Below the pieces are notes generated by a model that saw only the letters and a list, made by a program, of their open reading frames with translations, searched no databases and had not been told where the DNA came from. The position numbers and the translations under genes are program-made. From Propionibacteriaceae bacterium (GTDB lineage Bacteria; Actinomycetota; Actinomycetes; Propionibacteriales; Propionibacteriaceae), in assembly GCA_031256725.1 (NCBI GenBank), contig JAIRQE010000019.1, positions 128,830 to 160,829 of the forward strand: 32,000 nt of DNA, read 5' to 3'. How positions within the stretch are numbered: position 1 is the stretch's first letter; each line of letters starts with the position of its first letter. Shown in pieces: positions 8,109 through 28,733 of this stretch.

Positions 8109-8409
8109 AGGTCAGTACATACTAATCCTGCCCGAAACCCGCCACATTGGAGATTTCTTGGCCTCCACGACGACGCGGCAGGGTTTTGGGTACGATTTGA
8201 GTACAAACCCCTACCGCGTCGATTTCGAGGCTGGTGTGAGGGGGACGTCCCCGGTGGGGATGGTTTGCGCACCTGGTCATCAGGGGCTTGGTTTTTCGCC
8301 TGGAACTGGTCTGGGACGCTGGTGGTGACCGCGATCTGCATCGGGATGGTGAACCGCTCGGTGGCGGCGAACCATAGGTCACAAATTGACCAGTGAGATT
8401 GCTTCAAAT

Positions 8410-8467
8410 TAACTACTAAAGAACCTTTAAAGTAACTAATAGAATCTCTGCAAACCAACTAATGACA
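8410..8467. repeat. Three direct repeats (T/C)AACTA(C/A)T spaced 22-23 bp apart in AT-rich DNA upstream of the ATPase gene
   Basis: TAACTACTAAAG (8410), TAACTAATAGAA (8433) and CAACTAATGACA (8455). Spacing is about two helical turns. The last copy ends about 17 bp before ATG 8484. Confidence 0.4.
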
Positions 8468-8483
8468 TGATAGGTTTACCTGC

Positions 8484-9734
8484 ATGAAGTATCTAAAACG
8501 CCTTGTTGACGAGGAACTTGTACAGGCTCTTCGCCGATCCGGAGCAGTCCTGATCGAAGGGGCTCGTGGATGTGGGAAAACTTCAACTGCGGAACGGGAG
8601 GCAGGCAGTGTTTTCCGCCTTGATACCGACCCGTTGACAGACCTCTACATGCAAACAGATCCTTCACAAATGCTTGAAGGGGCATCGCCTCGACTGCTTG
8701 ACGAGTGGCAAATACATCCAAAGATTTGGGATCTCGTGAGGCGGGCCGTTGATGATCGCCAGCGAAAGGGCCAATTCATCCTGACCGGTTCTGTAACCCC
8801 AGAGGATACGATTCGCCGCCATTCCGGCGCTGGACGATTCACAGTGATTCGAATGAGACCCTTGACTTTGTGGGAAGAAGGAAAAAGCGATGGGGAGGTG
8901 AGTCTAGGCCAGCTAAGAAAGACTTGTGAACTCCCAATGATGCAGTCACCACAACCAACTCTTAACGAATGGACCGAGATTCTCTGCCGAGGGGGATGGC
9001 CTGCCATGGTTGAAGCAGATCTGAGCGACTCCATGAGATACGTCAAAGATTATCTTGATCTGATTGTCAGCGTGGATGTGGGCATGACTTCAAGCAGAAA
9101 ACGTGATCCTATCAGAATGACGCGACTGATCGCCTCCCTTGCGCGAAACACCTCGTCTGAAGCTTCAATCAATACCTTGCGATCTGATGCAGGAGGACCT
9201 GATAATCCACTCGCCAGAGATACAACCTCGGATTACCTTGACATATTGGAAAGACTGATGGTGATTGAGCCATTACCTGCTTGGCAAACTGCTCTTCGTG
9301 GTTCAGCGACCCTCAGACAAGCCCCCAAATGGCATTTCGTTGACCCATCTTTGGCTGTAAGTGCGTTGAGAGCTAACCCAGCGAAAATCCTGAAAGAGCC
9401 GAAGACACTCGGAATGCTATTCGAATCCCTGGCAATACGGGACCTAAGAACATATGCAGAAGCGGATGGTGGAGTCACTTTTCACGCACGTGACTCGGTT
9501 GGGCGGGAGGCAGACCTGATCATTGAATACTCGGATGGGTGGATGGCCTGCGAAATCAAGTTGGGCATGGGACAAGCAGACCAAGCAGCTGAGTCCTTGA
9601 CTCGATTTTGCGCAGCAGTTGATACGCAAACTGTCGGTCCTTGTCTAGGAAAAATCGTCATCGTAGGGAATGGACCGGCATATCAAAGAAATGATGGGAT
9701 TATGGTTGTTCCTTTGGCCAGTCTCCGCCAATAG
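8484..9734 (+). CDS. AAA+ ATPase with C-terminal PD-(D/E)xK nuclease-like domain (AAA_14/DUF4143-type ATP-binding protein)
   Basis: Walker A is GARGCGKTS and Walker B is RLLDEWQ. The C-terminal motif GREADLIIEYSDGWMACEIKLG fits D...E-x-K of the restriction-endonuclease fold. Confidence 0.8.
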   Translation: MKYLKRLVDEELVQALRRSGAVLIEGARGCGKTSTAEREAGSVFRLDTDPLTDLYMQTDPSQMLEGASPRLLDEWQIHPKIWDLVRRAVDDRQRKGQFILTGSVTPEDTIRRHSGAGRFTVIRMRPLTLWEEGKSDGEVSLGQLRKTCELPMMQSPQPTLNEWTEILCRGGWPAMVEADLSDSMRYVKDYLDLIVSVDVGMTSSRKRDPIRMTRLIASLARNTSSEASINTLRSDAGGPDNPLARDTTSDYLDILERLMVIEPLPAWQTALRGSATLRQAPKWHFVDPSLAVSALRANPAKILKEPKTLGMLFESLAIRDLRTYAEADGGVTFHARDSVGREADLIIEYSDGWMACEIKLGMGQADQAAESLTRFCAAVDTQTVGPCLGKIVIVGNGPAYQRNDGIMVVPLASLRQ

Positions 9735-9873
9735 TGAACGCCAGTAAATCCCACTGTTTGAGAATCATGGTAAAGCAGAAATGGGCTTCGACAAGGAAAA
9801 ATGACAAGCCTGACAGTGTTCGGATAAAGTCGTATTTCCTCCACAATCATATTATCTTAATCATCCTATAGGT

Positions 9874-15349: not shown

Positions 15350-16747
15350 ATGACACAAGTAAAGGCCTCTTCGACAGAAGAGAAAACTTATAGTCAACTT
15401 AGCGCAGGTCGGCGCTGGTTCCTATTGATCCTTGCCAGCATTGGCAGTTCTATTATTTATGCCCCTGCCTATCTGAAGGCTGTTTTTTACGATCCATTGA
15501 TGCAAGCCCTTGGTGTCACAAACACCCAATTGGGTGCAGTCTTTGGCGCTTATGCCATTACTGCATTGGTCTGCTACCTGCCCTCTGGGATCATCGCTGA
15601 CAAGGTGCGTATGCGTACCCTCTCTAGCGTTGGATTCATTTCAACAGGCATCCTGACCGCAATCTATGCGATGCTTCCGAGCCTGACCGTTCTATATATT
15701 CTGTTCATCTCTATGGGCGTCACAACGATCCTCATTTGGTGGGGAGTTCGGTACAAGCTGGTTCGCTTGGTATCCACAGAAGAGCAGTACCCAAGGAGAA
15801 TAGGTATCTCCTATGGCTTCTATGGTGCAGCAGGTCTCATTATCGGTCTCATCTCAACTTGGGTCGTTACGATGGTTGGCGAAAACCTCAAACTTGGCGT
15901 CTCCATCTACCTGGGCTTCCTCGCTGTTGTGATCACGACGCTGGGTATTCTCTCCTGGATCTTCATTCCCAAGTTCGCTGGCGAAATCAAGACCGATGGT
16001 CAGGGCTTCTCGTTGACAGAGTTCACGAGTGCATTCCGTAACCCCGTGGTATGGATTGCAGCTATCTCACTGTTCTTCGTGTACTTCTACTACACAGGTG
16101 TGACCTACACCACACCGTACCTCACTGGTGTTCTGGGAGCCTCCCTGGTTCTCACCACCATCGTTGCCAACATTCGTACATATGGTATCACTTTGTTGTC
16201 GGGACCGATCTTCGGATACATCTCATCCAAGTTCAAGCCATCCATCACAATTGCTGTCGGCTCAGTATGCTTCGTTGTCGCTTTGGGAGCTATGATGCTC
16301 CTTCCTCCAGGCCCGGCCATGGTCATCGTCGCCTTGGTGCTCGTCGTCGTACTTGGATTCATCGCCAATGGCGCCTTCTCTGTCGTCTCAGCTCAGTTGA
16401 CTGAAGGCAAGGTACCGCTTCACTACTTCGGTGCAGCCACTGGCTTGCTCTCCATCATCGGCTTCCTTCCAGACACCTTCTCCTCGACATGGTTCGGCGC
16501 CATCATGGATGCCGGCATTGACGCATCAGGCAATGTTGGCGCTGGAGCCTACCAGACGATCTTCATGATCCTCATCGGTTCAGCAGTACTCGCGGCCGTC
16601 TTCTCCCTAGTCCTGTACCTCTACCTTCGCAACAAGAAGAACAAGGGTACGGACGAGGTCGCAGATGGTACCTCTGCTGCGGGCGAAGCAGAAGATTCTG
16701 TGAGCAACTCCTCTGACCTCGTTTACGACAACACTGACAACGACTAA
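15350..16747 (+). CDS. MFS transporter (about 12 TM) with an acidic, serine-rich C-terminal tail
   Basis: 465 aa with repeated hydrophobic helices and an MFS loop motif, GIIADKVRMRTL. RBS GAAAGG lies 6 nt upstream. First gene of the operon. Confidence 0.85.
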   Translation: MTQVKASSTEEKTYSQLSAGRRWFLLILASIGSSIIYAPAYLKAVFYDPLMQALGVTNTQLGAVFGAYAITALVCYLPSGIIADKVRMRTLSSVGFISTGILTAIYAMLPSLTVLYILFISMGVTTILIWWGVRYKLVRLVSTEEQYPRRIGISYGFYGAAGLIIGLISTWVVTMVGENLKLGVSIYLGFLAVVITTLGILSWIFIPKFAGEIKTDGQGFSLTEFTSAFRNPVVWIAAISLFFVYFYYTGVTYTTPYLTGVLGASLVLTTIVANIRTYGITLLSGPIFGYISSKFKPSITIAVGSVCFVVALGAMMLLPPGPAMVIVALVLVVVLGFIANGAFSVVSAQLTEGKVPLHYFGAATGLLSIIGFLPDTFSSTWFGAIMDAGIDASGNVGAGAYQTIFMILIGSAVLAAVFSLVLYLYLRNKKNKGTDEVADGTSAAGEAEDSVSNSSDLVYDNTDND

Positions 16748-16759
16748 GAGGTCCCCACG

Positions 16760-17740
16760 ATGACCGCATCCAATAAGCTCAATGTTCTTCAGTTGATCTC
16801 TGATGACATGCAAGCTGTAATCCAGAAGTCAGCAGAACTGGCACCCGATGCCTATGATGTGAATGCTGGTTTGGACTCCATGCGTACCGCCTATAGTAAA
16901 GAACGCGCGTACTGGAATGAAGGCGGACCTGAGGTCCCCTACACGGATGCGGTCATCACCACCTCTCAAGGCGATGTACCTGTTCGCTTCCACACCCCCA
17001 CTCACGAGGTCTCCCCTGCGATTATCTATATCCACGGTGGCGGCTTCATCCTCGGTGGCCTGGATACCCATGATCGCATCATGCGTATCCTGGCTGACCA
17101 AACTGGGGCAACCGTCGTGGGAGTCGACTATTCTCTCTCACCTGAAGCCAAGCATCCTCGCGCACTTCGTGAATGTGTCGAGCTTGCCCAGTACCTTCAC
17201 ACCCATGGGTCGAAGCACGGAATTGATGGGGACTCCATTAGTTTCGCTGGTGACTCTGGTGGAGCCTTCCTGAGCTTGGCTTCCTACCTTTACCTTAAAA
17301 ACGAGGTTGATGGTGCTCGATATATTCAAGCATTGATCCTCTATTACGGACTCTATGGTCTTCGCGACTCAGTTTCACGTCGCCTCATGGGTGGCACCTG
17401 GGACGGATTGACCGAAGAGGATCTGGCTTATTACATGGACTCCTATCTTGCCGATCCGGCTGATGCGCGTAGTCCCTATGTCGACTGCCTGAGCGCCGAC
17501 CTCTCTACAGTACCGCCCTGTTTCATTGCAGCGGCCGAGTACGATCCCCTGATCGATGATTCGGCAGCCCTTGCGGCAGTACTGAGCAAACACGGGCTAC
17601 ACCACCGCTATGTGGTGTATGCCGGTGTTTTGCACGCCTTCCTCCACAATTCCCGCCACCTCGATACCGCTATGGATGCACTCGTCGATGGGGCTCAGTT
17701 CTTCCGTGACCTCGTGAAGAACCCACAAACCTCCCTATAA
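16760..17740 (+). CDS. aes: Alpha/beta-hydrolase, hormone-sensitive-lipase family esterase (Aes/acetyl-esterase-like)
   Basis: Oxyanion motif IYIHGGGFILGGLDTHDRIMR, nucleophile elbow FAGDSGGA, acid DPLIDD and His in VLHAFLH. By eye it is collinear with E. coli Aes as I recall it. Confidence 0.8.
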   Translation: MTASNKLNVLQLISDDMQAVIQKSAELAPDAYDVNAGLDSMRTAYSKERAYWNEGGPEVPYTDAVITTSQGDVPVRFHTPTHEVSPAIIYIHGGGFILGGLDTHDRIMRILADQTGATVVGVDYSLSPEAKHPRALRECVELAQYLHTHGSKHGIDGDSISFAGDSGGAFLSLASYLYLKNEVDGARYIQALILYYGLYGLRDSVSRRLMGGTWDGLTEEDLAYYMDSYLADPADARSPYVDCLSADLSTVPPCFIAAAEYDPLIDDSAALAAVLSKHGLHHRYVVYAGVLHAFLHNSRHLDTAMDALVDGAQFFRDLVKNPQTSL

Positions 17741-17770
17741 ACCACCGAATAAGAAACAAGGAGAACCATA

Positions 17771-18907
17771 ATGGATTTCGCACTCAACGATGAACAACAG
17801 CTATTCGTCGAAAACTTCCGGGAACTCATGGAGCGAGAAAATTGGGAACCTTACTTCGCCGAATGCGACAAGACCCACACCTATCCCGAGCGTTGGGTGA
17901 AGGCCCTATGCGAATTAGGCTTCGATCAGATCATGCTCCCCGAAGAGCACGGCGGCCTCGACCTTGGCCTGGTCACACTGATGTCTGTGTACGAAGAACT
18001 CGGACGCCTCGGCGGCCCGACGTACATCCTCTACCAGCTCCCCTGCTTCGACACCATCCTGCGTGAAGGTACCCAAGAACAGATCAACAAGATCATGGCC
18101 TATGTTGGCACAGGCAAGCAGATCTGGAATAGCGCATGTACTGAGCCTGGTGCTGGCTCTGATGTGGGCAGCCTCCAAACCACCTACACCCGCAAGAATG
18201 GCAAGATCTACCTCAACGGACACAAGACCTTTATCACTTCTTCAGCGAAGGTGCCCTTCCTCGTCGTGATGGCTCGCGATTCCGAGAACTATGACACCTT
18301 CACAGAGTTCTTCTTGGATATGAGCCTCCCAGGCATCAAGATCGAGCCCCTGGAGAAACTGGGTCTGCGCATGGATTCCTGCTCCGATGTCTACCTCGAC
18401 AATGTTGAACTTGATGAGTCCGACATCTTTGGTACAGAGGGCAATGGCTTCAGGCGTGGTATCGGCGACTTCGATCTTGAGCGTTTCCTTGTCGGAGCCA
18501 GCGACTACAGCTCAGCTCTGTGCGCCTTTGAGGATGCAGCCAAGTACGCCAATGTACGCGTCCAGTTCGGTAAGACGATCGGTCGCTTCCAGTTGAACCA
18601 ACTGAAGTTTGCCGAGATGGCAATCAAGCTCAAGGCCATGAAGTACATGCTCTACGAAGCAGCATGGTCCTTCGATCAAGGCGAGATGACCTCTGCTCAG
18701 GCAGCGATGTGTAAGTACTACGGCGCTAATGCTTCCGCAGCAGTCGTTGACGCTGCCATGCAGGTGATGGCTGGTGTTGCTGTTGCTGGCGACCACAGGA
18801 TCCAGCGCATCTGGCGTGATCTTCGCGTTGATCGTGTCTCCGGTGGTACCGACGAGATGATGATCCTCACCCTCGCCAAGGGTGTCCTCAGAGAATACGC
18901 AGCCTAA
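17771..18907 (+). CDS. caiA: Acyl-CoA dehydrogenase family protein, CaiA-like (crotonobetainyl-CoA reductase type)
   Basis: [33 protein letters not shown]..., [35 protein letters not shown] and [23 protein letters not shown] parallel E. coli CaiA block for block (from memory). AAGGAG RBS. Confidence 0.85.
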
Positions 18908-18917
18908 GGAGTTCGCC

Positions 18918-20129
18918 ATGACACTGCCAACACAGAAACCGTCTTTTGGCCCCCTTGACGACGTACGCGTGGTCTATGCAGCCGTAGAACTGGCTGTACC
19001 CAGGGCTTGCTGCCTCATGGCTGAATGGGGTGCAGATGTTACCTGGATCGAGAACACTGGCGCGGGTGACACCATCCGCGACACCGCTTATATTAAGCAG
19101 GCTGAACGCCGTAACCAGCGTTCTGTTGCCCTCAACTATTTCAGCGAAGAGGGTACGGAAGTCCTGCTGAAGATGTTGGAGAATGCGGATGTTTTCATCG
19201 AATCCAGCAAGGGTGGTACCTTCGCAAAGCGCGGAATCACAGATGAGATGCTCTGGGAACACAACCCTAACTTGGTGATCGTCCACGTCTCCGGTTTCGG
19301 CCAAAAGGGTGTACAAGACATGGTCACTCGCGCGGCCTATGACCTCACGGTGATGGCCTATTCGGGGTACATGAGCCAAAACGGCACACCCGAGCAGCCC
19401 ATGAATCCTGGGCCCTACACCGGTGACTACATCAACTCTTTGATGATCCTGTCCTCGACCTTGGCTGCTCTGCATAAGGTGAAGATCACTGGTCAAGGCG
19501 AATCCATCGACCTTGCTATGTTCGAATCCCTGCTCGCCATCGGTCAGTACTATCTCGTTGACTATCTCAACGCGGGAATCATCTGGCCTCGCCCAGGACC
19601 ACGAAACCAGAACCTGTGCGCTATCGGTGAATACCGCTGCTCAGATGGATTCATTGGCCTGTGTGTCTATGGGGTCACCCAGAATAAGTACCTCCTGGAA
19701 GCTATTGGACTGGGAGACCTCTGGGGTAGCGATGACTACCCAGAAGACACCTCGGCCCTATGGCTATCCAGCCCAAAGGCCGAACTCATCGAAGCCAAAC
19801 TCGAAGAGTACCTCTCCACACGGACAGTCGCTGAGGTTGAGAAGGACTTTGCCGCTAACCGAATCGCAGCACAGAAGGTGATGGAGTTCCCTGATCTGGT
19901 TGCTGATGATCATATGAAGGCACGCGACGTCTGGATGGACTGGACCACCGCTGATGGCGAAGAGTTCCACGGCCTTGGTGTCTTCCCGAAGTTCGAGAAG
20001 AACCCTGGTGGAATGTGGCGCCCCATGCCGGCCCAAGGATACGACACCGAGGATGTTCTGCGTCGCATCGGTTACACAGATGAACAAATCGAGCATTTCG
20101 TCGCCACAGGCGTTGCTCTACAGGCATAA
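18918..20129 (+). CDS. caiB: Family III CoA-transferase, CaiB-like (carnitine/gamma-butyrobetainyl-CoA transferase type)
   Basis: FGPLDDVRVVYAAVELAVP...AEWGADVTWIEN, GESIDLAMFESLL and NPGGMWRPMPAQGYDTEDVL resemble CaiB. Start set to ATG 18918 (AAGGA RBS, 10 nt after the caiA stop) rather than ORF-track 18882. Confidence 0.85.
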   Translation: MTLPTQKPSFGPLDDVRVVYAAVELAVPRACCLMAEWGADVTWIENTGAGDTIRDTAYIKQAERRNQRSVALNYFSEEGTEVLLKMLENADVFIESSKGGTFAKRGITDEMLWEHNPNLVIVHVSGFGQKGVQDMVTRAAYDLTVMAYSGYMSQNGTPEQPMNPGPYTGDYINSLMILSSTLAALHKVKITGQGESIDLAMFESLLAIGQYYLVDYLNAGIIWPRPGPRNQNLCAIGEYRCSDGFIGLCVYGVTQNKYLLEAIGLGDLWGSDDYPEDTSALWLSSPKAELIEAKLEEYLSTRTVAEVEKDFAANRIAAQKVMEFPDLVADDHMKARDVWMDWTTADGEEFHGLGVFPKFEKNPGGMWRPMPAQGYDTEDVLRRIGYTDEQIEHFVATGVALQA

Positions 20130-20145
20130 GAAACAAGGAGAAAAA

Positions 20146-20892
20146 ATGAAGATAGTTGCCTCGTTCAAAGTCTCTCCCGAGACCCAAGATATTCAGACCC
20201 GTCCTGATCGCAGTCTCAACCTTGAACGCGCACAGTGGAAGGTTGGCACCTATGACCTCAATGCTATTGAGGCCGCACGCCAACTCGCTGATGAGGTCGG
20301 TGGTACGGTCGTCGGTCTTAGTGCTGGTGGATCAGCCCTCGAGAATGCAAAACTCACCAAGGATGCCCTCTCTCGTGGACTCGACGAATTAGTCACCGTG
20401 GTTGATGAAAACCTCGTGGGTTCTGAGAGTTATCAAACTGCATCAGTCCTGGCCGAGTCCCTCACTGAAATCGGTGACGTGGATCTGGTTCTCGTAGGTG
20501 CTGGTTCCTCAGATGAGTACACCCAGCAGGTTGGAAACCACCTGGGTCAGATCCTGGGATGGCCCACACTCAATGCCATCGAGACTATCGAAGCTGAGGG
20601 TGACCATCTCAAGGTCGAAAGAGTCCTCGAAGATGGCGTCCAAGTCATTGAGGTCCAGCTCCCCGCTGTACTCTCGCTGACCTCTGGCGCAAACACTCCA
20701 AGGATCGCTGGAATGAAAGACATCCTGGCGGCAGGCAAGAAGCCGGTCACCTCGGTTGCTGCTGGTGTACTCCCCTCACCAACAGCCACCCCAGTCTCCC
20801 AGCTTGCTCCCGAGCAAGTTGACCGTCGCCAGATCATCCTCGAAGGCGTGGACGCAGCTGCGGAACTCGCCATCCACCTCAAAGCACTCTAA
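20146..20892 (+). CDS. fixA: Electron-transfer flavoprotein beta subunit, FixA-like
   Basis: MKIVASFKVSPETQDI...YDLNAIEAARQLADE...LPAVLSLTSGANTPRIAGMKDILAAGKKP matches the FixA/EtfB pattern. Start trimmed to ATG 20146 (AAGGAG RBS). Confidence 0.88.
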   Translation: MKIVASFKVSPETQDIQTRPDRSLNLERAQWKVGTYDLNAIEAARQLADEVGGTVVGLSAGGSALENAKLTKDALSRGLDELVTVVDENLVGSESYQTASVLAESLTEIGDVDLVLVGAGSSDEYTQQVGNHLGQILGWPTLNAIETIEAEGDHLKVERVLEDGVQVIEVQLPAVLSLTSGANTPRIAGMKDILAAGKKPVTSVAAGVLPSPTATPVSQLAPEQVDRRQIILEGVDAAAELAIHLKAL

Positions 20893-20901
20893 GGAAGAAC
20901 C

Positions 20902-21795
20902 ATGACAAAGATATGGGTTATTGCACATGATGACACTGTTGCCGCGGATCTTGTCCGCAGCGCGCGAGGATTGGGCTCCTATGTGGGCACAGTCTGCATA
21001 GGCGGTCACGCGGTACCAGGTGCCGATCTGACACTGACAGCACCACAAATACCCGAGACTCTCATTGAAGGCTACTCTTCAGCCATTGCTGAGGTTGTCA
21101 AGGATGGCGACCTGGTTATCTTCAGTACAGACACACAGTCCCGCCTTCTTGCTGGGCTGGTCGCCTCCACACTGAAGACCTCTGTACGCAACATCACCTC
21201 GATCTCGGCTGAGGGTGATACCTTCACCATCACGAGGCCTTTGTACGGTGGTTTGGCTGTGGTAACGGAAACCCTGGGTAGTGGGGCATCTGTACTCGTT
21301 GTCGGACCTGGTGCTCTACCTGAGTATGAAGGCGACCTTCCTTCTGGAGAGGTCAAGGACCTTGAAGGTACGCCGTCCACGCCCGGATTGAAAGTTGTTG
21401 AAACCCGAACCAAGCAGGTCCAGGCAGTCAACCTTGCTGCCGCAAAGCGTGTGATTGGTGTGGGCCGCGGATTCGCCCAGGAAGCAGACCTTGAGATGGC
21501 TCGCGAACTCGCAGCCAAACTCGGTGGTGAACTCGCCTGCAGCCGTCCTATGGCTGAGGGTGTGAACTGGATGCCAGTCGAATGCTACCTCGGAGTCTCC
21601 GGGGCAACCATTAGGCCCGACCTCTACCTCGCCATCGGTATCTCTGGTCAGATCCAGCACATGGTTGGCGTCAACAGATCCAAGGTGATCGTCGCCATCA
21701 ACAAGGACAAGAACGCACCGATCTTCACCCATGCCGATTACGGCGTTGTGGGGGATCTCTACGATGTTCTTCCTGCTCTGATCCAGGCACTATAA
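20902..21795 (+). CDS. fixB: Electron-transfer flavoprotein alpha subunit, FixB-like
   Basis: C-terminal FAD-binding block ELACSRPMAEGVNWMPVECYLGVSGATIRPDLYLAIGISGQIQHMVGVNRSKVIVAINKDKNAPIFTHADYGVVGDL. Confidence 0.9.
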   Translation: MTKIWVIAHDDTVAADLVRSARGLGSYVGTVCIGGHAVPGADLTLTAPQIPETLIEGYSSAIAEVVKDGDLVIFSTDTQSRLLAGLVASTLKTSVRNITSISAEGDTFTITRPLYGGLAVVTETLGSGASVLVVGPGALPEYEGDLPSGEVKDLEGTPSTPGLKVVETRTKQVQAVNLAAAKRVIGVGRGFAQEADLEMARELAAKLGGELACSRPMAEGVNWMPVECYLGVSGATIRPDLYLAIGISGQIQHMVGVNRSKVIVAINKDKNAPIFTHADYGVVGDLYDVLPALIQAL

Positions 21796-21809
21796 AGGAA
21801 GTCATAACC

Positions 21810-23399
21810 ATGGTGGACATTGTTGGTACGACCACATTCCCACAGATGTGGGATGCGGCTGTACGCTGTGCAGGAGACCGAGTCTTCTTGGCCTTCCTGC
21901 ACAGTGATGGTACTCGCCTCGAGTTCACTTATCGAGAATTCGACAAGGTTGTATCACGAACCGTTTCTCATCTGTCCCATCTAGGGATAGGTCACGGCTC
22001 GATGGTCGCTATGCAACTATGCAACTCCCCATGGTTCATATCCTGCCTTATCGGCATCACAAAGCTCGGAGCCATCGCGGTACCAGTAGGCCCAGGTGCT
22101 ACTGGTACCGAGTTGGCCGGGATCTATGCCACCTGTGATGCCCAATGGGCCATCGTCGAGTCCATTCACGTGGACACCCACAAAGAATTACGCTTTCAAG
22201 GATTGATTCGCCACGGAATCATCTGCGTGGATGATCTCGTATCTAACGTGTCAGGGGACGCATATTGTGACACCTCAATTCCTGTAGTGATTGGGGTGTC
22301 ACAATATGCGTCCCCTGACGCTCCGCCCCCTGACACTAGACCAAACACAGGACCAACCAGTGATGACATTGCGGAGGTGATGTTCACCTCGGGCACAACC
22401 GCAGCACCTAAGGGTGTGCTGGTTACCCATGCCAACTTGGTCTACTCAGCTCATGTTGCCACCTGGCAGGCATCGCTGCGACCAGATGATCGTATCTTCA
22501 CGACCATGCCAGCCTGCCACTCCAACTTCCAACTGGTGGCATTAACGGGCGCGATTCTTTCAGGAGCCCGACTGGTCCTTTCCGAGAAGTACTCTGCTAG
22601 CCGCTTCTGGTCCCAGATACGCACCGAAAAGGCAACAGTGATCCAACTGACTGCCATGATGGCTCGTACCCTCCTTCTTCAACCATCGAGTGAAGACGAC
22701 TCCACCCACAATGTGCGGGAGACCTTGTACTTCATGCCTTTGCCTGATGCCGACAAACTGGAGTTTGAGAAGCGCTTCGGCGTGAGGTTCATGAACTCCT
22801 ATGGGTCGACCGAATCCATCTGCTGGGCGCTCACAGACCCACCTGTCGGGGAACGCAAGTGGCCTTCGGTGGGCCGTCCTGCTCTCGGGTACGAGGTCTC
22901 TATTGTGAGCCCTGAGGGTGACCATCTTCCAGCGGGGAGTCTTGGAGAGATCTGGGTGAAAGGTGTCCCCGGTCGTACCCTCATGAAAGGCTACCTGGGC
23001 AACGACCAGGCTACACATGCAGCCTTGACTGAGGACGGCTGGCTGCGTACCTCTGACACCGGATATTACGACGAACAAGGCTGGTTCTATTTCGTGGATC
23101 GGGCCCGCAACCTCATCAAACGTGGAGGCGAGAATATCTCAGCAACAGAGATTGAGACCCTACTCAACTCCCATCCCCTCATCAAAGAGGCCGCCGTGAT
23201 CGGTGTACCCGATCCTGTACGAGACCAAGCAGTGAAAGCCTTTATTCAGCCTGAGTCTGATGCTGAACTGGATACAGCGGATGTCGCATCATTTTGTTCC
23301 ATGCATCTCGCCAGTTTCAAAGTCCCCCAAATAATCGAGTTCGTGGAGGACTTTCCACGAACCGCCTCAATGAAAATCGAGAAGAGATCCCTGAGCTAA
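21810..23399 (+). CDS. caiC: AMP-forming acyl-CoA synthetase/ligase, CaiC-like
   Basis: Adenylate-forming motifs FTSGTTAAPKGV, SYGSTE, TSDTGYYDEQGWFYFVDRARNLIKRGGENIS and PRTASMKIEKRSL. The N-terminus MVDIVGTTTFPQMWD parallels E. coli CaiC MDIIGGQHLRQMWD (from memory). Confidence 0.85.
   Translation: MVDIVGTTTFPQMWDAAVRCAGDRVFLAFLHSDGTRLEFTYREFDKVVSRTVSHLSHLGIGHGSMVAMQLCNSPWFISCLIGITKLGAIAVPVGPGATGTELAGIYATCDAQWAIVESIHVDTHKELRFQGLIRHGIICVDDLVSNVSGDAYCDTSIPVVIGVSQYASPDAPPPDTRPNTGPTSDDIAEVMFTSGTTAAPKGVLVTHANLVYSAHVATWQASLRPDDRIFTTMPACHSNFQLVALTGAILSGARLVLSEKYSASRFWSQIRTEKATVIQLTAMMARTLLLQPSSEDDSTHNVRETLYFMPLPDADKLEFEKRFGVRFMNSYGSTESICWALTDPPVGERKWPSVGRPALGYEVSIVSPEGDHLPAGSLGEIWVKGVPGRTLMKGYLGNDQATHAALTEDGWLRTSDTGYYDEQGWFYFVDRARNLIKRGGENISATEIETLLNSHPLIKEAAVIGVPDPVRDQAVKAFIQPESDAELDTADVASFCSMHLASFKVPQIIEFVEDFPRTASMKIEKRSLS
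22250..22319. repeat. 70-nt near-perfect palindrome (25-bp perfect arms, extendable to about 30 bp) embedded in frame in the caiC-like CDS
   Basis: Left arm GTCAGGGGACGCATATTGTGACACC (22250-22274) is the exact reverse complement of 22295-22319. The inner CAAT/ATTG pairs extend the stem after one T/G position, leaving an 8-10 nt loop. The encoded peptide is SGDAYCDTSIPVVIGVSQYASPD. Confidence 0.9.
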
Positions 23400-23417
23400 C
23401 AAGGAAAGGAATATGCA

Positions 23418-24290
23418 ATGGGTAATATCAATACAGAGATGGTCGGACAGACCTTTGGACCCTTCATTAGGGAGTACACCTTCCGCGATCTGGAGTTGTT
23501 CGCACTCGGGTGCGGCGCTGGGATCGACGGCAAACAGGACCTCATCTATATCAATGAACACGATGAGCGTGATCCGAAGCTTCAGGTACTCCCCATGTAT
23601 GCCGCGATGCTCATCGTTGATTCTGCGGTGACACGCACCATCGACTATGGCTACAACTATGCTGGCTCCCTGCACTGGGGTTTCGACCTGCGTATCCATC
23701 AGCCCATCACGAAGATGGCCGACCGTCTTGAGACGAAGGTACGCCTTGAGGGGCTGTACGACCGTGGCGAAGGCCGTGGACTGCTTGCCCAGCACATTGG
23801 TGACACCTTCGATTCTGAAGGCAACCTGTTGTGTACTAACGAATCATGGGACTGCCTGATCTATGACGGCGGTTGGGGTGGACCCACACCACCTAAGGAT
23901 GTTGTGGACATGCCTGATCGCGATCCAGATCACATCGTCACCGAGACGATCCCCTTCAACCAGGCTCTGATCTATCGCCTCTCGGGCGATTACCACCCCC
24001 AGCACATCGACTGGGACTATGCAGCCCAGAATAATGAGCCTCGTCCGATCCTTCATGCGATCAGCTATGCCGGTGTTGTGATGCGTCACGCCATCTCGAC
24101 CTTCATCCCTGATCAGCCGGAGCGCTTGACGAGGTTCAAGACCCGAATCACCTCACCAGTACACCCGGGTGCCACCCTGGCCACCCACCTGTGGAAGGTC
24201 AGTGACACTGAGGCGCGTTTCATGCTTGTCGAAGCTAATGATCCTCAAGCAAAACCGCACCTCAACTGGGGAATCATCGAGTGGAGCTAA
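23418..24290 (+). CDS. MaoC-like double-hotdog (R)-hydratase/dehydratase
   Basis: 290 aa, about twice a single hotdog domain. A hydratase-2-like motif, YRLSGDYHPQHID (canonical SGDxNPxH), keeps the Asp and His, with Asn replaced by His. RBS AAGGAAAGGA. Confidence 0.75.
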   Translation: MGNINTEMVGQTFGPFIREYTFRDLELFALGCGAGIDGKQDLIYINEHDERDPKLQVLPMYAAMLIVDSAVTRTIDYGYNYAGSLHWGFDLRIHQPITKMADRLETKVRLEGLYDRGEGRGLLAQHIGDTFDSEGNLLCTNESWDCLIYDGGWGGPTPPKDVVDMPDRDPDHIVTETIPFNQALIYRLSGDYHPQHIDWDYAAQNNEPRPILHAISYAGVVMRHAISTFIPDQPERLTRFKTRITSPVHPGATLATHLWKVSDTEARFMLVEANDPQAKPHLNWGIIEWS

Positions 24291-24294
24291 CCCC

Positions 24295-25623
24295 ATGAGT
24301 ACCACCAAGAGCCACGTCATTGATGACGCCGTCATGAACCGTTTCCTGGTTAAGGTCACGGTCTTCTCCTCAGGAGGTTCCTTCCTGGACGGGTACGTAC
24401 TGTCGATCATTGGCGTGGCCTTGGTTGGTCTCACCACATCCCTAAATCTGACCACCTCAGATGCTGCCTTCATTGGCGCAGCCTCACTGGCCGGCATCTT
24501 CTTTGGAGCAATTGTTGGTGGACGTTTGACAGATGCCTTCGGGCGCCGGCTAATGTTCCTTCTCGATGTGTCGCTCATCGGAATCGTCTCAATCGCCTGC
24601 ATCTTCGTAGAGGCACCCTGGCAGTTGATCGTCTTAAGATTCCTGATTGGGTTCTTTATCGGCGCCGATTACCCTATTGCCACCTCGCTGATTGTTGAAT
24701 TCGTACCACGCAAACATCGCGCCATCGGAATGGGAATCGTCTCAGCGTCATGGTACCTCGGTGCAACAGTTGCTGCCTTTGTTGGGTACCTCCTTTACCA
24801 CGTCCCCAACGGATGGCAGTGGATGTTCGCATCCTCCGTCATCCCCTGTATCGCCCTGCTCATTGGTCGACACGATATTCCCGAATCACCACGCTGGCTT
24901 GCACAACGCGGACGTGTAGAGAAGGCGCGCGCGGTCATGAAGAAGGTCTACGGTCAGGAGGTGGATCTTGAAGACGAGATCCCCACCACCAACCTCGGCT
25001 TTAAGCAGGTTTTCACACATGGGTACCTTGGGCGCATCATCTTCTTGGGGATCCTCATTTTGTGTCAGGTGGTGCCGATGTACGCGATGTACACTTTCGG
25101 GCCACGGATCATGGCATCCTTTGGTCTCGCTGAAGGCTCATTATCCATCCTCGGCGAAACAGTGGTCTCCCTCTTCTTCCTCATTGGCTCCATCCCAGCG
25201 ATGTTCTGGTTAAACTCCCTGGGACGACGCCCCCTACTCATCGGCTCTCTTGGACTCATGGCTGTGGGTCTGTTGATCCCCGGTATCGCTCCAGGGGCTC
25301 CGATCATCGTGATCATCATTGCTTTTGGACTCTATGCCTTCTTCTCTGGTGGACCTGGGATCCTCCAGTGGTTGTACCCCAATGAGCTCTTCCCAACTGA
25401 GGCCCGCGCAACTGCGGTTGGTGTGGCCATCGCGATCAGCCGTATAGGTGTGGTCGCCTCAACGTACGGATTACCTCTCTTCCTCGAATCCTATGGAATC
25501 GGCCCAACGATGTTGATTGGTGCTGGGCTTCTCCTGATTGCCCTCGTCATGTCGATATTCATGGCTCCCGAAACCCGAGGGATGACGCTATCCGAAGCAA
25601 GTTCACTTCATACGAAAGGATGA
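24295..25623 (+). CDS. yaaU: MFS transporter, sugar-porter/metabolite:H+ symporter type, YaaU-like
   Basis: Motifs GRLTDAFGRRLMF, IPESPRWLAQRGRVEKA, GADYPIATS and PETRGMTL. By eye it is collinear with E. coli YaaU as I recall it. Start trimmed to ATG 24295, 4 nt after the MaoC stop. Confidence 0.82.
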   Translation: MSTTKSHVIDDAVMNRFLVKVTVFSSGGSFLDGYVLSIIGVALVGLTTSLNLTTSDAAFIGAASLAGIFFGAIVGGRLTDAFGRRLMFLLDVSLIGIVSIACIFVEAPWQLIVLRFLIGFFIGADYPIATSLIVEFVPRKHRAIGMGIVSASWYLGATVAAFVGYLLYHVPNGWQWMFASSVIPCIALLIGRHDIPESPRWLAQRGRVEKARAVMKKVYGQEVDLEDEIPTTNLGFKQVFTHGYLGRIIFLGILILCQVVPMYAMYTFGPRIMASFGLAEGSLSILGETVVSLFFLIGSIPAMFWLNSLGRRPLLIGSLGLMAVGLLIPGIAPGAPIIVIIIAFGLYAFFSGGPGILQWLYPNELFPTEARATAVGVAIAISRIGVVASTYGLPLFLESYGIGPTMLIGAGLLLIALVMSIFMAPETRGMTLSEASSLHTKG

Positions 25624-25628
25624 TAGTA

Positions 25629-26915
25629 ATGGCTGACTTTGATGCCATTGTGGTGGGATCGGGCTGTGCGGGCCCGGTAGCTGCCCATGAATTAGCCACA
25701 CGAGGCAAGAGTGTCTTGGTGATTGAGCGAGGAAACTTCGCTGGTGCCAAGAATGTCTCAGGTGGGCGTTTGTATACCCATGCTCTGCGAGAGGTCTTCC
25801 CGAACTTCCGCGATGATGCCCCCCTGGAGCGTCGGGTGGTACGTGAAAGAATCTCGATGCTGGAACCCGAAGCGGGACTGACCATCGAGTTCTCTGATGA
25901 ACAGATGAGGGATGAATCCCAGGATTCCTACACAGTACTTCGGGCACAATTCGATCCGTGGCTAGTTTCACAAGCCGAAGCTGCTGGAGCAGAGTACATC
26001 CACGGAATCGCGGTCGAATCCCTGATCAAGGATGGAAACCGGGTCACTGGTGTCAGTGCTGGTGGGGATGAGATCAGCGCAGATGTGGTGATCCTCTGCG
26101 ATGGGGTCAACTCTCTTCTCGCCGAACAAGCAGTGGGTACTCCTCGCCCATCTCGCTCCTCAGTTGCTGTGGGAATCAAGCAGGTCATCGAATTGGATGA
26201 GCATGTCATTAATGAACGCTTCACCTGTTCATCCGATGAGGGTGCAGCCTGGCTGTTCATGGGTGATGCCACCCATGGTCACGTTGGCGGTGGCTTCCTG
26301 TACACCAATAAGAATTCGATTTCTTTGGGTCTGGTTGTCACTGTGGCAGACATGGTTGAAGCCGACACAACCATCGCTCAACTCTTGGAGGATTTCCGCC
26401 AGCATCCAGTGATTGCCCCTGTCATCGCAGGTGGTGCAGTGGTCGAACATTCTGGACATCTTGTTGCCGAGGGTGGGTACAACGCTTTGCCTACCCTGAT
26501 TGGCGATGGTGTCATGCTTGCTGGTGAATCGGCCATGATGTGTCTCAACGCCGGATATACCGTCCGTGGAATGGATCTTGCCATCGCCGCAGGGATGCAC
26601 GCCGGTCGTAGTGCAGCCACAGCCCTTGATAATGGGGACACCTCATCAAAGGGGCTTGGTTCCTATGTGAAAGCCCTCGAAGACTCCTTCGTCATCAAGG
26701 ATATGAAGACCCTGCGTCGCTTCCCGGATTTCATGGAACACACCCCCCGGATGTTCTCCACCTATCCTGAGTTGGCTTGTTCACTGGCCCGCCAGATGTT
26801 CCTCGTTGATGGTACCCCCATGAAGCCGGTACGCAAGAAGGCCTGGCCCCTACTGAAAGACGTCGGCCTATTCAACCTTCTCAAAGATGCTCGTAAAGGA
26901 GTGAAAGCGTTATGA
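25629..26915 (+). CDS. fixC: FAD-dependent ETF-quinone-type oxidoreductase, FixC-like
   Basis: FDAIVVGSGCAGPVAAHELATRGKSVLVIERGNFAGAKNVSGGRLYTH (dinucleotide fold) and GGFLYTNKNSISLGLV match FixC. AGGA lies 8 nt before ATG 25629. The alternative ATG 25620 overlaps the MFS stop (ATGA). Confidence 0.88.
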   Translation: MADFDAIVVGSGCAGPVAAHELATRGKSVLVIERGNFAGAKNVSGGRLYTHALREVFPNFRDDAPLERRVVRERISMLEPEAGLTIEFSDEQMRDESQDSYTVLRAQFDPWLVSQAEAAGAEYIHGIAVESLIKDGNRVTGVSAGGDEISADVVILCDGVNSLLAEQAVGTPRPSRSSVAVGIKQVIELDEHVINERFTCSSDEGAAWLFMGDATHGHVGGGFLYTNKNSISLGLVVTVADMVEADTTIAQLLEDFRQHPVIAPVIAGGAVVEHSGHLVAEGGYNALPTLIGDGVMLAGESAMMCLNAGYTVRGMDLAIAAGMHAGRSAATALDNGDTSSKGLGSYVKALEDSFVIKDMKTLRRFPDFMEHTPRMFSTYPELACSLARQMFLVDGTPMKPVRKKAWPLLKDVGLFNLLKDARKGVKAL

Positions 26916-27211
26916 GTACACTCAAACCAATTACCGTGAATGTTGATGCCTACCTTGGCCTAAACAAGTACGAAGTAGATGAAGGAAACCCACATATCGA
27001 GGTTGCTCCTGAGCCTGAAACAGAACTCTTCAAGGAACTAGTACGTATATGCCCAGCTGGGTTGTACAAGATGGATGGGGATCAACCCATGTCCGTTGAC
27101 TTCGCTGGATGCCTAGAATGCGGCACATGTCGCATAGTCGGCGCCGGTGCAATCATCGCCTCATGGCGATATCCGTCAGCCACTATGGGCATAGAGTACA
27201 GGTACGGCTAA
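26912..27211 (+). CDS. fixX: Ferredoxin-like protein FixX
   Basis: CPAGLYK...DFAGCLECGTCRIVG...YPSATMGIEYRYG parallels E. coli FixX. ATGA overlap with fixC. Confidence 0.9.
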   Translation: MSTLKPITVNVDAYLGLNKYEVDEGNPHIEVAPEPETELFKELVRICPAGLYKMDGDQPMSVDFAGCLECGTCRIVGAGAIIASWRYPSATMGIEYRYG

Positions 27212-27305
27212 AACCTTGGGAATACTCTCAGCTCCATCCTTGTTCCATCATTATCAATACAGATTACAATTGAAATAGGTATTCAAAATCTCGGAGGGGA
27301 TGGAG

Positions 27306-28733
27306 ATGACTACAGCACAGGGACGATCTGTCTTGGATAGGCTCGTCGACGATTCACGGATGAAATACCTCGGGTTAGTCTTAGTACTCACCTGGCATTA
27401 CACCCTGTGGTTCGTTCCGACGGCCTTTCCAGCAACCTTCCTCTTGGATGACCGAATCACCTTCGGATGGCTCACCGCGCTGACGTGTACTGTAATCACC
27501 ACGGTCGCCCTTGCCCTCGCTCTTGGGAGAACACGGCATCTCCCCCAGTCCGGATGGCTCCTTTGGACAGTTTCTGGTCTCGGGTGTGTCGCAACCTTGA
27601 CACTCACTCTTGGATGCGGCACAACCCGAGGCCCACTCATTTGCTATCTAGCAAGTGCCCTTATTGGGATCTGCGCGGGATTTCTATGGGTCATGTGGGG
27701 TGAAAGGTATGCCTGTCAACGAGCCCAATTCACCATGGGTCGTCTGGCACCCGTCTACGGGATCGTCCTCCTTGCAGGGTTGATAGCGGTCTACCTCCTT
27801 CCAGGTATCCTTGCCCCGATTCTTGTCTGTCTCATGCCTGTCACCTCTGGGCTGCTTCTCAACCTCAGTTGGCGCAAGTCACAATCGGTGAGCTTTCCTC
27901 CGATCCTCACCAGGAACACCACCCGTCATGCGACCCTCAGCATCGTCATAGTGTGCCTCATCTCTTTCATCGTGGCCTATGTCAGCTACTTCGTGGTGGC
28001 GATCGTACCCTGGGAGGATCTGTGGGGTGTCGAACGAAGCTTCACCTTCGGAGTCGGTATCGGGGCAATACTCATCCTGGTTATTGGCCTTGCCCATGCC
28101 CGACTACAGGGGAAAACCACGATCTTCAAACTCTTCCCCTGGATCCTACTATTCTCCCTTGTGGCATGCCTGTTATGCCTATCATCCTATCCGGAAGATT
28201 TCACAGGATTCCTTCTTGCCCTCACCGCATCCTCGGTTCTCGAAGTCCTAGTGATCATGTATATGGCACGTCTGACTCTCAGCGGCTATACCCCTTCCGC
28301 AACAGCCTTCGGCATGAGTGCAGCAGCCATCCGATTCGGGATACTTCTCGGCAATGGTACCGCTCTCATCTATGAACGCATTCCAGGATTCCAAGACCTG
28401 TGGACCCAACCAACCCTGCTGGTTTTCGTTGTTGTCCTGGCTGGCCTTCTCATTCCTTTGGTACGACAGGAGTACTCCATTAACGACCTCACTGTTGCCC
28501 CTGTGGATGCCTCACAGTGGAGTACCACCCTTGAAGGAATCAGCAAACAATTCCATCTGTCTGCACGCGAGACTGAGATTCTTGAACTCTTGGGCCGCGG
28601 ATACACCGCCACTGCCGTAGCCGAAAAACTCATCATCTCCCCCCACACAGTCAACACCCATGTTCAACACATCTACGAAAAGATGGGAATCCATCGCCGT
28701 TCTGAACTCTTGGACTATCTCAATAAAGGTTAG
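27306..28733 (+). CDS. Membrane-embedded LuxR-family transcriptional regulator (about 12 TM N-terminal domain plus C-terminal LuxR HTH)
   Basis: About 400 aa of successive hydrophobic helices, then LSARETEILELLGRGYTATAVAEKLIISPHTVNTHVQHIYEKMGIHRRSELLDYL (GerE/LuxR HTH). GGAGG lies 8 nt before ATG 27306. The alternative ATG is at 27300. Confidence 0.85.
   Translation: MTTAQGRSVLDRLVDDSRMKYLGLVLVLTWHYTLWFVPTAFPATFLLDDRITFGWLTALTCTVITTVALALALGRTRHLPQSGWLLWTVSGLGCVATLTLTLGCGTTRGPLICYLASALIGICAGFLWVMWGERYACQRAQFTMGRLAPVYGIVLLAGLIAVYLLPGILAPILVCLMPVTSGLLLNLSWRKSQSVSFPPILTRNTTRHATLSIVIVCLISFIVAYVSYFVVAIVPWEDLWGVERSFTFGVGIGAILILVIGLAHARLQGKTTIFKLFPWILLFSLVACLLCLSSYPEDFTGFLLALTASSVLEVLVIMYMARLTLSGYTPSATAFGMSAAAIRFGILLGNGTALIYERIPGFQDLWTQPTLLVFVVVLAGLLIPLVRQEYSINDLTVAPVDASQWSTTLEGISKQFHLSARETEILELLGRGYTATAVAEKLIISPHTVNTHVQHIYEKMGIHRRSELLDYLNKG

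Follow-up and report, generated by a model that had tools for sequence, protein, structure and literature searches.

The 32-kb stretch of Propionibacteriaceae DNA analyzed here (the window) holds a cluster of same-strand genes 13.4 kb long (15350-28733), and within this cluster lies a gene (23418..24290, + strand) for a 290-amino-acid double-hotdog protein of the MaoC/hydratase-2 family. The product, referred to below as the MaoC protein, is a predicted carnitinyl-coenzyme A (CoA) dehydratase and thus a putative analog of CaiD. A first-pass annotation, made from the sequence alone, had placed a MaoC-like protein of this length between a ligase and a second transporter. The open reading frame (ORF) was confirmed, with the ligase gene at 21810-23399 on one side and a major facilitator superfamily (MFS) transporter gene at 24295-25623 on the other. 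The gene starts with an ATG at 23418, and AGGAAAGGA, a good ribosome-binding site, is located 8 nt 5' of this codon. It is separated by 18 nt from the stop codon of the caiC-like ligase gene and by 4 nt from the gene that follows. Comparison with seven orthologs gave a ratio of nonsynonymous to synonymous substitution rates (Ka/Ks) of 0.06 to 0.09, so the gene is under strong purifying selection.

Both hotdog halves that had been proposed for the protein were found with Pfam hidden Markov models, MFE-2_hydrat-2_N (PF22622) at residues 19-143 (34.9 bits) and MaoC_dehydratas (PF01575) at residues 165-267 (56.2 bits), each above its gathering cut-off. Pfam returned hotdog domains only, and zero NCBIfam models matched the protein, the CaiD model NF002936 included. 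Among PDB sequences, human MFE-2 matched best, through its hydratase-2 domain (1s9c; E = 1.7e-33), followed by a MaoC protein of Mycobacterium tuberculosis (3khp; E = 6.7e-32). An AlphaFold model, with a mean predicted local distance difference test score (pLDDT) of 75 and a poorly defined region at residues 38-83 (pLDDT below 50), was matched by Foldseek to 3khp and 1s9c with template modeling (TM) scores of 0.77 to 0.80 and E values of about 1e-23. A thioesterase or a member of another hotdog subfamily was ruled out, as the protein has the hydratase dyad and was assigned to hydratase 2 by Pfam, the PDB sequence matches, and the fold alike. The earlier assignment of the protein as a hydratase therefore stands.

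The catalytic residues of the family are retained within an altered motif. The variant hydratase-2 motif of the window protein, YRLSGDYHPQHIDW, keeps the catalytic Asp191 and His196, which correspond in the HMMER alignment to Asp510 and His515 of the human enzyme. Translation and alignment to 1s9c and 3khp place the motif, YRLSGDYHPQHID, at 23973..24011 (+ strand), where His193 takes the position of the canonical Asn (Asn512 in the human protein), as had been noticed from the sequence, Gln195 that of Leu, and Trp199 that of the Pro in "HIDP." The full hydratase-2 consensus, Y-R-L-S-G-D-x-N-x-L-H-I-D-P-x-x-A (PMC3823801), is not matched by the window protein; there the segment reads YRLSGDYHPQHIDWDYA, in which His, Gln, and Trp replace Asn, Leu, and Pro, respectively. 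In human hydratase 2 the third residue of the catalytic triad is Gly533, whose backbone polarizes the thioester, and one canonical MaoC enzyme is impaired by a G217A mutation (PMC3823801). This Gly is not kept in the window protein; the residue aligned with it is Ala214 (His196+18), which forms part of the pair His213-Ala214 (24054..24059, + strand).

The genes around the MaoC gene, all on the + strand, include cai and fix genes. CaiA, a crotonobetainyl-CoA reductase of the acyl-CoA dehydrogenase family (17771..18907), scored 698 bits against its equivalog model NF002885 (cut-off, 540) and is 68.6% identical to CaiA of Escherichia coli K-12. The L-carnitine CoA-transferase CaiB (18882..20129) scored 666 bits against equivalog NF002914 (cut-off, 413) and is 45% identical to E. 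coli CaiB. The longest caiB ORF begins with a GTG at 18882 and shares 26 nt with the 3' end of caiA; since the family match begins at residue 17 and an in-frame ATG is found at 18918, 11 nt past the caiA stop codon, the latter is probably the true start. For the CaiC-like betaine:CoA ligase (21810..23399), which is 39% identical to E. coli CaiC, the best NCBIfam match was NF005947 (crotonobetaine/carnitine-CoA ligase) with 584 bits, below the cut-off of 651. All four fixABCX genes are present, and their products are 36 to 53% identical to those of E. coli. The FixA/YdiQ-type electron-transfer flavoprotein (ETF) beta subunit (20146..20892; Pfam ETF; 43% identical to FixA) gave 276 bits with its best NCBIfam model, PRK12342, and 210 bits with FixA, both below the cut-offs, and the FixB/YdiR-type ETF alpha subunit (20902..21795; Pfam ETF_alpha and ETF; 36% identical to FixB) gave 225 bits with PRK11916 and 201 bits with FixB, below the FixB cut-off. 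The FixC/YdiS-type ETF:quinone-oxidoreductase-like flavoprotein (25620..26915; 50% identical to FixC) scored 498 bits with NF007450 (PRK10015; cut-off, 466) and 480 bits with the FixC model, and the best NCBIfam match of the FixX ferredoxin-like protein (26912..27211; 53% identical to FixX) was NF011993, with 112.8 bits against a cut-off of 166. By the paired scores for the first three, the electron-transfer genes of the window resemble the ydiQRST paralogs of E. coli slightly more than they resemble fixABC. The equivalog scores of CaiA and CaiB, together with the identities to E. coli CaiABC and the Fix proteins, mark the window cluster as a genuine carnitine-reduction cluster.

The cluster opens with MFS transporter 1 (15350..16747; Pfam MFS_1, 93.8 bits), a putative acylcarnitine/carnitine importer, followed by an Aes-like alpha/beta-hydrolase of the hormone-sensitive-lipase family (16760..17740; Abhydrolase_3), a putative O-acylcarnitine esterase that scored 432 bits against NF007547 (acetyl esterase; cut-off, 389). 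MFS transporter 2 (24295..25623; Pfam Sugar_tr, 192.7 bits) is the ortholog of E. coli YaaU, to which it is 48.7% identical over 437 amino acids, and is a putative carnitine/gamma-butyrobetaine carrier replacing CaiT. At the other end lies the gene for a LuxR-family regulator of 477 amino acids (27300..28733; Pfam GerE at residues 420-473), whose long hydrophobic N-terminal domain makes it a candidate membrane-bound sensor-regulator in place of CaiF; in 16 loci of the Propionibacteriaceae/Cellulomonas type, such a gene accompanies the cluster, lying either downstream of it or upstream in divergent orientation. The window contains no CaiT (BCCT), no crotonase, and no CaiE/hexapeptide-repeat ORF, and has two MFS transporters and the MaoC protein instead. 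Among its ORFs of at least 70 amino acids none was CaiD-like (E ≤ 0.01), and each ORF of at least 190 amino acids either had another evident identity from its translation or lacked similarity to CaiD, in agreement with the earlier statement that no crotonase-fold gene is present. Promoter and terminator matches over 14.8-29.2 kb were no commoner than in shuffled sequence, and the reading of the cluster as one operon is based on gene spacing alone.

Nucleotide similarity to the nearest genomes (65 to 73%) was limited to 15395-28727, and the flanks were unmatched. With its similarity bounded in this way (15.4-28.7 kb), the cluster behaves like a unit that can be transferred, and it looks horizontally mobile. 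Arcanobacterium haemolyticum (L003) carries this cluster in its ribosomal-protein region, as an insertion separating map from infA. One MaoC homolog is plasmid borne in Curtobacterium (P0026).

To place the gene in a wider context, relatives were collected from a genome collection, where they occurred in 173 species. The best 80, all from Actinomycetota, were taken with 10-kb flanks and combined with seven others into a census of 87 loci, in which MaoC homologs served as bait and ORFs were compared by phmmer. MaoC adjoined CaiC in 84 of the 87 loci. CaiA was found in 73 loci and CaiB in 75, with the Fix genes likewise in about 75; where cluster genes were absent, contig ends mostly explained it. 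MFS transporter 1 led the cluster in 68 loci, the Aes-like esterase was syntenic in 67, and MFS transporter 2 was present in 75. A crotonase (E ≤ 0.01 to CaiD, within 10 kb) was detected at a single census locus, that of Shewanella fidelis, and clusters of this type without a crotonase within 10 kb were found in more than 80 species.

Beyond the Actinomycetota, the gene arrangement differs from group to group. Sporomusa has caiT-A-B-fixABCX-caiC-MaoC-yaaU and Desulfobaculum has caiT-A-B-C-MaoC-fixAB...fixCX, both without caiD and caiE. In Enterobacillus tribolii, a member of the Enterobacterales, the arrangement fixXCBA<->caiT-caiA-caiB-caiC-MaoC reproduces the E. coli layout with MaoC at the exact caiD position, again without caiD or caiE. 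The esterase gene is missing next to MaoC in all three genera. CaiA of these MaoC-only clusters is 85% (Enterobacillus), 81% (Desulfobaculum), and 80% (Sporomusa) identical to E. coli CaiA, and the reductase should therefore see the same intermediate with either hydratase. Endozoicomonas (L091) carries two tandem MaoC paralogs after caiC (8123-8971 and 9020-9871) and no crotonase. At 43% identity to the window protein, the first of these carries an Ile where the catalytic Asp would be (LIGIYHHLH) and a Met at the position of His213, a pattern suggestive of a noncatalytic partner subunit. Collectively, the linkage to caiABC and fix and the position in Enterobacillus argue strongly that MaoC in the "CaiD slot," where the first-pass annotation had put it, represents a robust non-orthologous displacement that is widespread outside the Enterobacterales.

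Several further features of these loci were recorded. A GloB-like metallo-beta-lactamase (MBL)-fold hydrolase of 209 to 214 amino acids, with a weak match to TIGR03413 (92 bits), lies in or beside the cluster, often with a TetR gene, in Arcanobacterium (L003, 12263-12892), Desulfobaculum (L006, 762-1391), and Propionibacterium freudenreichii (L094, 12451-13095); it is absent from the window. This hydrolase might be a thioester-proofreading stand-in for CaiE. Several cluster genes (MFS1, esterase, caiB, caiC, and MFS2) are fragmented in Varibaculum cambriense UMB0796 (L082) and in P. freudenreichii (L094), where MaoC is intact, consistent with the decay reported for dairy propionibacteria. An apparent CaiC-MaoC fusion of 443 amino acids (P0046) contains only half of an AMP-binding_C domain and most likely reflects a frameshift or an error in gene calling; it was not counted as Rosetta-stone evidence. 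The prevalence of MaoC-type relative to CaiD-type clusters was sought by a metagenome scan seeded with a CaiA alignment. Among 80 loci, 57 were CaiD-type, 1 was MaoC-type, and the rest were incomplete, figures that give no prevalence estimate, as the loci were mostly E. coli-like gut contigs ranked by likeness to proteobacterial-like CaiA.

A word-indexed search with the MaoC protein returned more than 500 relatives, the best 120 of which were all full length and 57 to 87% identical to it. Their sources include Actinomycetaceae (Trueperella, Arcanobacterium, Schaalia, and Varibaculum), Propionibacteriaceae, Cellulomonas, and Coriobacteriales, as well as Bacillota (Sporomusa and Peptococcaceae), Desulfovibrionales, and Gammaproteobacteria (Shewanella, Ferrimonas, Endozoicomonas, and Enterobacillus). 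An exhaustive HMMER search over 1.84 billion 50%-identity representatives recovered the whole clade as a single 50%-identity cluster with 581 bits. The next full-length relative outside the clade (P0126) scored 205 bits at 43% identity and has the canonical GDVNPLH (GDxNPLH) and HG motifs; its genomic context was uninformative, the contig being only 1.3 kb long. All relatives beyond it were at most 37% identical to the window protein. By these measures, the MaoC proteins form a tight, isolated, and specialized clade with a motif of its own.

Comparison of 29 clade members with 102 outgroup hydratase-2 proteins showed where the clade departs from its family. The catalytic Asp and His were invariant in all 29 aligned members and kept in at least 80% of the outgroup, and the dyad, the GGxGG loop, and His213 are common to both groups. 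Positions that were invariant in the clade and rare in the outgroup were Thr72, Thr74, Phe89, Trp144, Asp145, Asp161, His193, Gln195, Trp199, Tyr201, Ser216, His224, and Lys241; such specificity-determining positions fall within the catalytic motif itself. The motif GD[YFW]H[PQ]QH[IV]DW was present in 191 of 193 unique clade sequences. His stood at the Asn position in the same proportion of these sequences (191/193), and Asn was found there in 87% of the outgroup. The three motif replacements (His, Gln, and Trp) are fixed in the clade and were seen in 0 to 2% of outgroup proteins. The position equivalent to Gly533 was less uniform, with Ala in about 160 of the 193 sequences and Gly in about 15. 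The alignments indicate that the catalytic machinery is kept and its immediate surroundings are systematically remodeled from hydrophobic to polar/aromatic residues, a change that would suit a short cationic substrate.

A relative of the window cluster has been connected with a phenotype in P. freudenreichii, where it was described in the Scoary2 study (Genome Biol 2024) as extending "from the MFS transporter to fixX" (PMC11007987). In strains with intact MFS and hydrolase genes, acylcarnitines were depleted in yoghurt and carnitine and putative gamma-butyrobetaine accumulated; the MFS1 ortholog was statistically associated with acylcarnitine depletion, and an association of the esterase was likewise reported (PMC11007987). 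The strains lack caiD and caiT homologs, and the authors suggested that an "enoyl-CoA hydratase" fills the caiD gap, without giving a fold, motif variant, stereochemistry, or enzymology for it (PMC11007987). The claim of new biochemistry in the first-pass annotation thus needs to be narrowed: replacement of caiD as such had already been proposed in 2024, and what is new is the fold, the motif, and the stereochemical question, none of which was addressed there. Beyond this suggestion, we found no literature that ties MaoC/hotdog enzymes to carnitine or discusses the stereochemistry of the clade. The P. freudenreichii protein WP_044635905.1 falls in the clade, within the 90%-identity cluster of a protein 79% identical to that of the window. 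The gene order (MFS, esterase, caiA, caiB, caiC, MaoC, MFS, [MBL], and fixABCX) is alike, and the published pseudogenization was found again. The window differs in coming from a different actinobacterium of about 54% G+C content, in having fixAB between caiB and caiC, and in its LuxR regulator.

The crotonases and the hotdog hydratases are a textbook mirror-image pair, L-specific and D-specific, respectively: crotonases, including CaiD, give the L alcohol, and hydratase 2/MaoC enzymes give the D alcohol. In the Fischer convention L-carnitine and L-3-hydroxyacyl-CoA share one spatial arrangement, with CH2N+Me3 in the place of the alkyl tail, and their R/S labels differ only since CH2N outranks CH2C(O) under the Cahn-Ingold-Prelog rules. 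The argument of the first-pass annotation that L-(R)-carnitine is spatially equivalent to L-(S)-3-hydroxyacyl-CoA, the crotonase product, is thus correct. Because L-carnitinyl-CoA has L/(S)-3-hydroxyacyl geometry and hydratase 2 is D/(R)-specific, the mismatch between an L-configured substrate and a D-specific family is real. The genomic context argues for an L-configured substrate of the MaoC protein. A D-configured substrate, which had been offered as a second explanation, is disfavored because bacteria with these clusters live in dairy products or in association with hosts, where they meet acyl-L-carnitines, and because of the acylcarnitine phenotype of P. freudenreichii; it is kept alive, at low probability, by the co-occurrence of MaoC and CaiD in Shewanella and Ferrimonas.

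We consider it reasonably probable that the MaoC gene encodes the carnitinyl-CoA dehydratase/crotonobetainyl-CoA hydratase of a CaiD-less carnitine-respiration operon, and the most likely reading is that of an isofunctional CaiD analog with an altered stereochemical course. Several points weigh against this assignment. All characterized hydratase-2/MaoC enzymes are D/(R)-specific (PMC3823801), and canonical hydratase-2 specificity would give D-carnitinyl-CoA and not the L isomer. The identification of gamma-butyrobetaine in P. freudenreichii was only putative (PMC11007987), and our literature searches on this type of enzyme, its carnitine context, and its stereospecificity turned up no assay of any clade member. 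In S. fidelis, Shewanella sp. WXL01, and Ferrimonas kyonanensis, one operon reads caiT-A-B-C-caiD-MaoC-(caiE)-esterase, with caiD and MaoC side by side (L004, 9123-10852; L092, 9013-10852; and L090, 9106-10858, respectively). The CaiD encoded immediately upstream of MaoC is 80 to 89% identical to E. coli CaiD and scored 549 bits against the equivalog model, so that in the two Shewanella species and Ferrimonas MaoC is not simply a CaiD replacement; the pair may work as a two-hydratase racemase, or these operons may show gene displacement at an intermediate stage. On a Coriobacteriia-like contig with the actinobacterial layout, a generic crotonase (173 bits against a CaiD cut-off of 500) is encoded on the opposite strand at a distance of 4 kb, and, as the crotonase search spanned the loci only, a crotonase for the L-specific step may be encoded elsewhere in these genomes.

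In one alternative, canonical stereochemistry is kept and the enzyme interconverts crotonobetainyl-CoA and D-carnitinyl-CoA, either forming a two-hydratase carnitine epimerase with a crotonase or enabling the cell to consume or remove the D isomer; the L-specific step of MaoC-only organisms would then fall to a crotonase encoded elsewhere. The fold and the Asp/His dyad are indeed those of D-specific hydratases, two hydratases of opposite specificity are established to yield 3-hydroxyacyl-CoA epimerase activity, and the presence of a bona fide CaiD with MaoC in the three operons just described fits such a pair. Carnitine racemase activity is also known in E. coli expressing cai (PMC2131755). 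However, P. freudenreichii strains reported to lack caiD homologs still show the carnitine phenotype (PMC11007987). Strong purifying selection on the gene, in more than 80 species without a crotonase within 10 kb, would also be hard to reconcile with D-carnitine, which is no natural nutrient known to us. MaoC at the exact caiD position in Enterobacillus, and a systematic remodeling of the catalytic motif for which a canonical enzyme would have no need, likewise speak against it, and we regard this alternative as unlikely.

The enzyme could instead keep its syn, pro-2S geometry and act on L-carnitinyl-CoA to give (Z)-crotonobetainyl-CoA, with CaiA reducing the Z isomer. By the stereochemical reasoning that applies to hotdog dehydratases, syn elimination of a 3S-type hydroxyl and the pro-2S proton gives a Z-alkene, polyketide-synthase DH domains give Z-alkenes from L-hydroxy substrates, and the product gamma-butyrobetainyl-CoA keeps no record of alkene geometry. 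Against this, CaiA of the MaoC-only clusters is 80 to 85% identical to the E. coli enzyme, which uses CaiD-derived (E)-crotonobetainyl-CoA, one CaiA serves both CaiD and MaoC in the Shewanella and Ferrimonas operons, and enzymes of the acyl-CoA dehydrogenase family are normally specific for trans-2-enoyl-CoA; we rate this as the least probable of the alternatives. Very improbable, too, is a role in another step, be it as a CoA-thioester proofreading hydrolase, in direct elimination from O-acylcarnitinyl-CoA, or in hydration of another enoyl-CoA, with carnitinyl-CoA dehydration carried out by an unrelated protein or not needed. Hotdog proteins include many thioesterases, the MaoC-only clusters also lack CaiE, a PaaY-like protein, and in Shewanella and Ferrimonas both MaoC and the esterase are extra to a complete caiTABCDE set. 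Sequence, Pfam, and fold nevertheless place the protein in the hydratase-2 subfamily with a hydratase dyad and not among the thioesterases, Sporomusa, Desulfobaculum, and Enterobacillus have MaoC but no accompanying esterase, and the conserved CaiA would receive no L-carnitine-derived substrate if a dehydratase were lacking.

If the MaoC protein is the isofunctional analog of CaiD, the pathway would run as follows. MFS transporter 1 would import acyl-L-carnitines, and the Aes-like esterase would de-esterify them, roles that the published phenotype supports. CaiC and CaiB would activate L-carnitine to L-carnitinyl-CoA (CaiB identified by its equivalog score, the CaiC-like ligase falling below its cut-off), the double-hotdog enzyme would dehydrate this to crotonobetainyl-CoA, and the crotonobetainyl-CoA reductase CaiA, likewise identified by its equivalog score, would act on the product. 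CoA would be recycled by CaiB, and gamma-butyrobetaine would exit, probably via the YaaU-like MFS transporter 2. Catalysis is expected to rely on Asp191/His196, the hydratase-2 dyad that is conserved in the C-terminal hotdog. Because L-carnitinyl-CoA has L/(S)-3-hydroxyacyl geometry, a switch of face or a new acid would be needed. The opposite enoyl face might be presented to Asp191/His196, for example by binding of the other C1-C2 rotamer, or anti elimination might proceed with a new acid, for which the clade-invariant His193 is the obvious candidate. Candidates for both the stereochemical change and trimethylammonium binding are the replacements Asn to His193, Leu to Gln195, Pro to Trp199, and Gly to Ala214, and Trp144, Asp145, Phe89, and Thr72/Thr74 of the N-domain pocket may play the same role. 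That the clade comprises the first hotdog dehydratases acting on an L/(S)-3-hydroxyacyl-CoA, namely, L-carnitinyl-CoA, by means of His193/Gln195/Trp199/Ala214 and an aromatic/acidic trimethylammonium pocket, and that it is the standard carnitinyl-CoA dehydratase in carnitine respiration outside the Enterobacterales, is a fuller proposal to which we give even chances.

Relative to CaiD of E. coli and Proteus (NF002936), the MaoC protein shares the slot directly after caiC (as in Enterobacillus), the partners CaiA, CaiB, CaiC, and FixABCX, and the predicted reaction. In contrast, CaiD has a crotonase spiral and two Glu residues, whereas the MaoC protein has a double hotdog and an Asp/His dyad; the two show no phmmer similarity, and the parent family of the MaoC protein has the opposite expected stereospecificity. 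With the hydratase 2 of MFE-2 (1s9c and 1pn4) and M. tuberculosis 3khp it shares a double hotdog with an inactive N-domain and a catalytic C-domain, and with 1s9c and 3khp it shares the GGxGG loop, the Asp/His dyad, and 27 to 31% identity. It differs from these proteins in Asn to His193, Leu to Gln195, Pro to Trp199, Cys to Ser216, and Gly533 to Ala214 and in the clade-specific Trp144, Asp145, and Phe89. Unlike MFE-2 hydratase 2, it stands alone as a bacterial protein whose gene is tied to carnitine operons, and its predicted substrate is a short cationic L-hydroxyacyl-CoA, as opposed to the D-3-hydroxy fatty or bile acyl-CoA of MFE-2-type enzymes. The two-hydratase 3-hydroxyacyl-CoA epimerase resembles the Shewanella and Ferrimonas arrangement, in which CaiD and a hydratase-2-type enzyme are encoded side by side and could in principle racemize carnitinyl-CoA, but most clusters, including that of the window, have the hotdog enzyme only.

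The cluster also points to functions that can be tested for an acylcarnitine esterase and for the E. coli transporter YaaU, whose gene is uncharacterized and lies immediately 3' of fixX in strain K-12. YaaU-type genes accompany the cluster in the window, in Sporomusa (59% identical), in Enterobacillus (78% identical), and in the 75 census loci noted above, which suggests that YaaU is a carnitine-system transporter; no literature linking yaaU to carnitine was found. Gamma-butyrobetaine formed from L-carnitine is the committed intermediate toward trimethylamine and trimethylamine N-oxide. In current gene catalogs, such as that of PMC11857547, caiTABCDE is the criterion by which its producers are recognized, and the cai operon is regarded in the field as enterobacterial (PMC10653785). 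MaoC-type clusters would be missed by screens that depend on caiD or caiT, and bacteria that convert carnitine to gamma-butyrobetaine would thus be undercounted; among the 173 species with MaoC relatives are Actinomycetaceae of the mouth, gut, and urogenital tract, Coriobacteriia-like contigs, Negativicutes, Desulfovibrionales, and dairy propionibacteria. If the proposed stereochemical course is true, a hotdog enzyme acting on an L-configured substrate would break the rule of the mirror-image hydratase pair and would show how few active-site changes can invert a stereochemical outcome.

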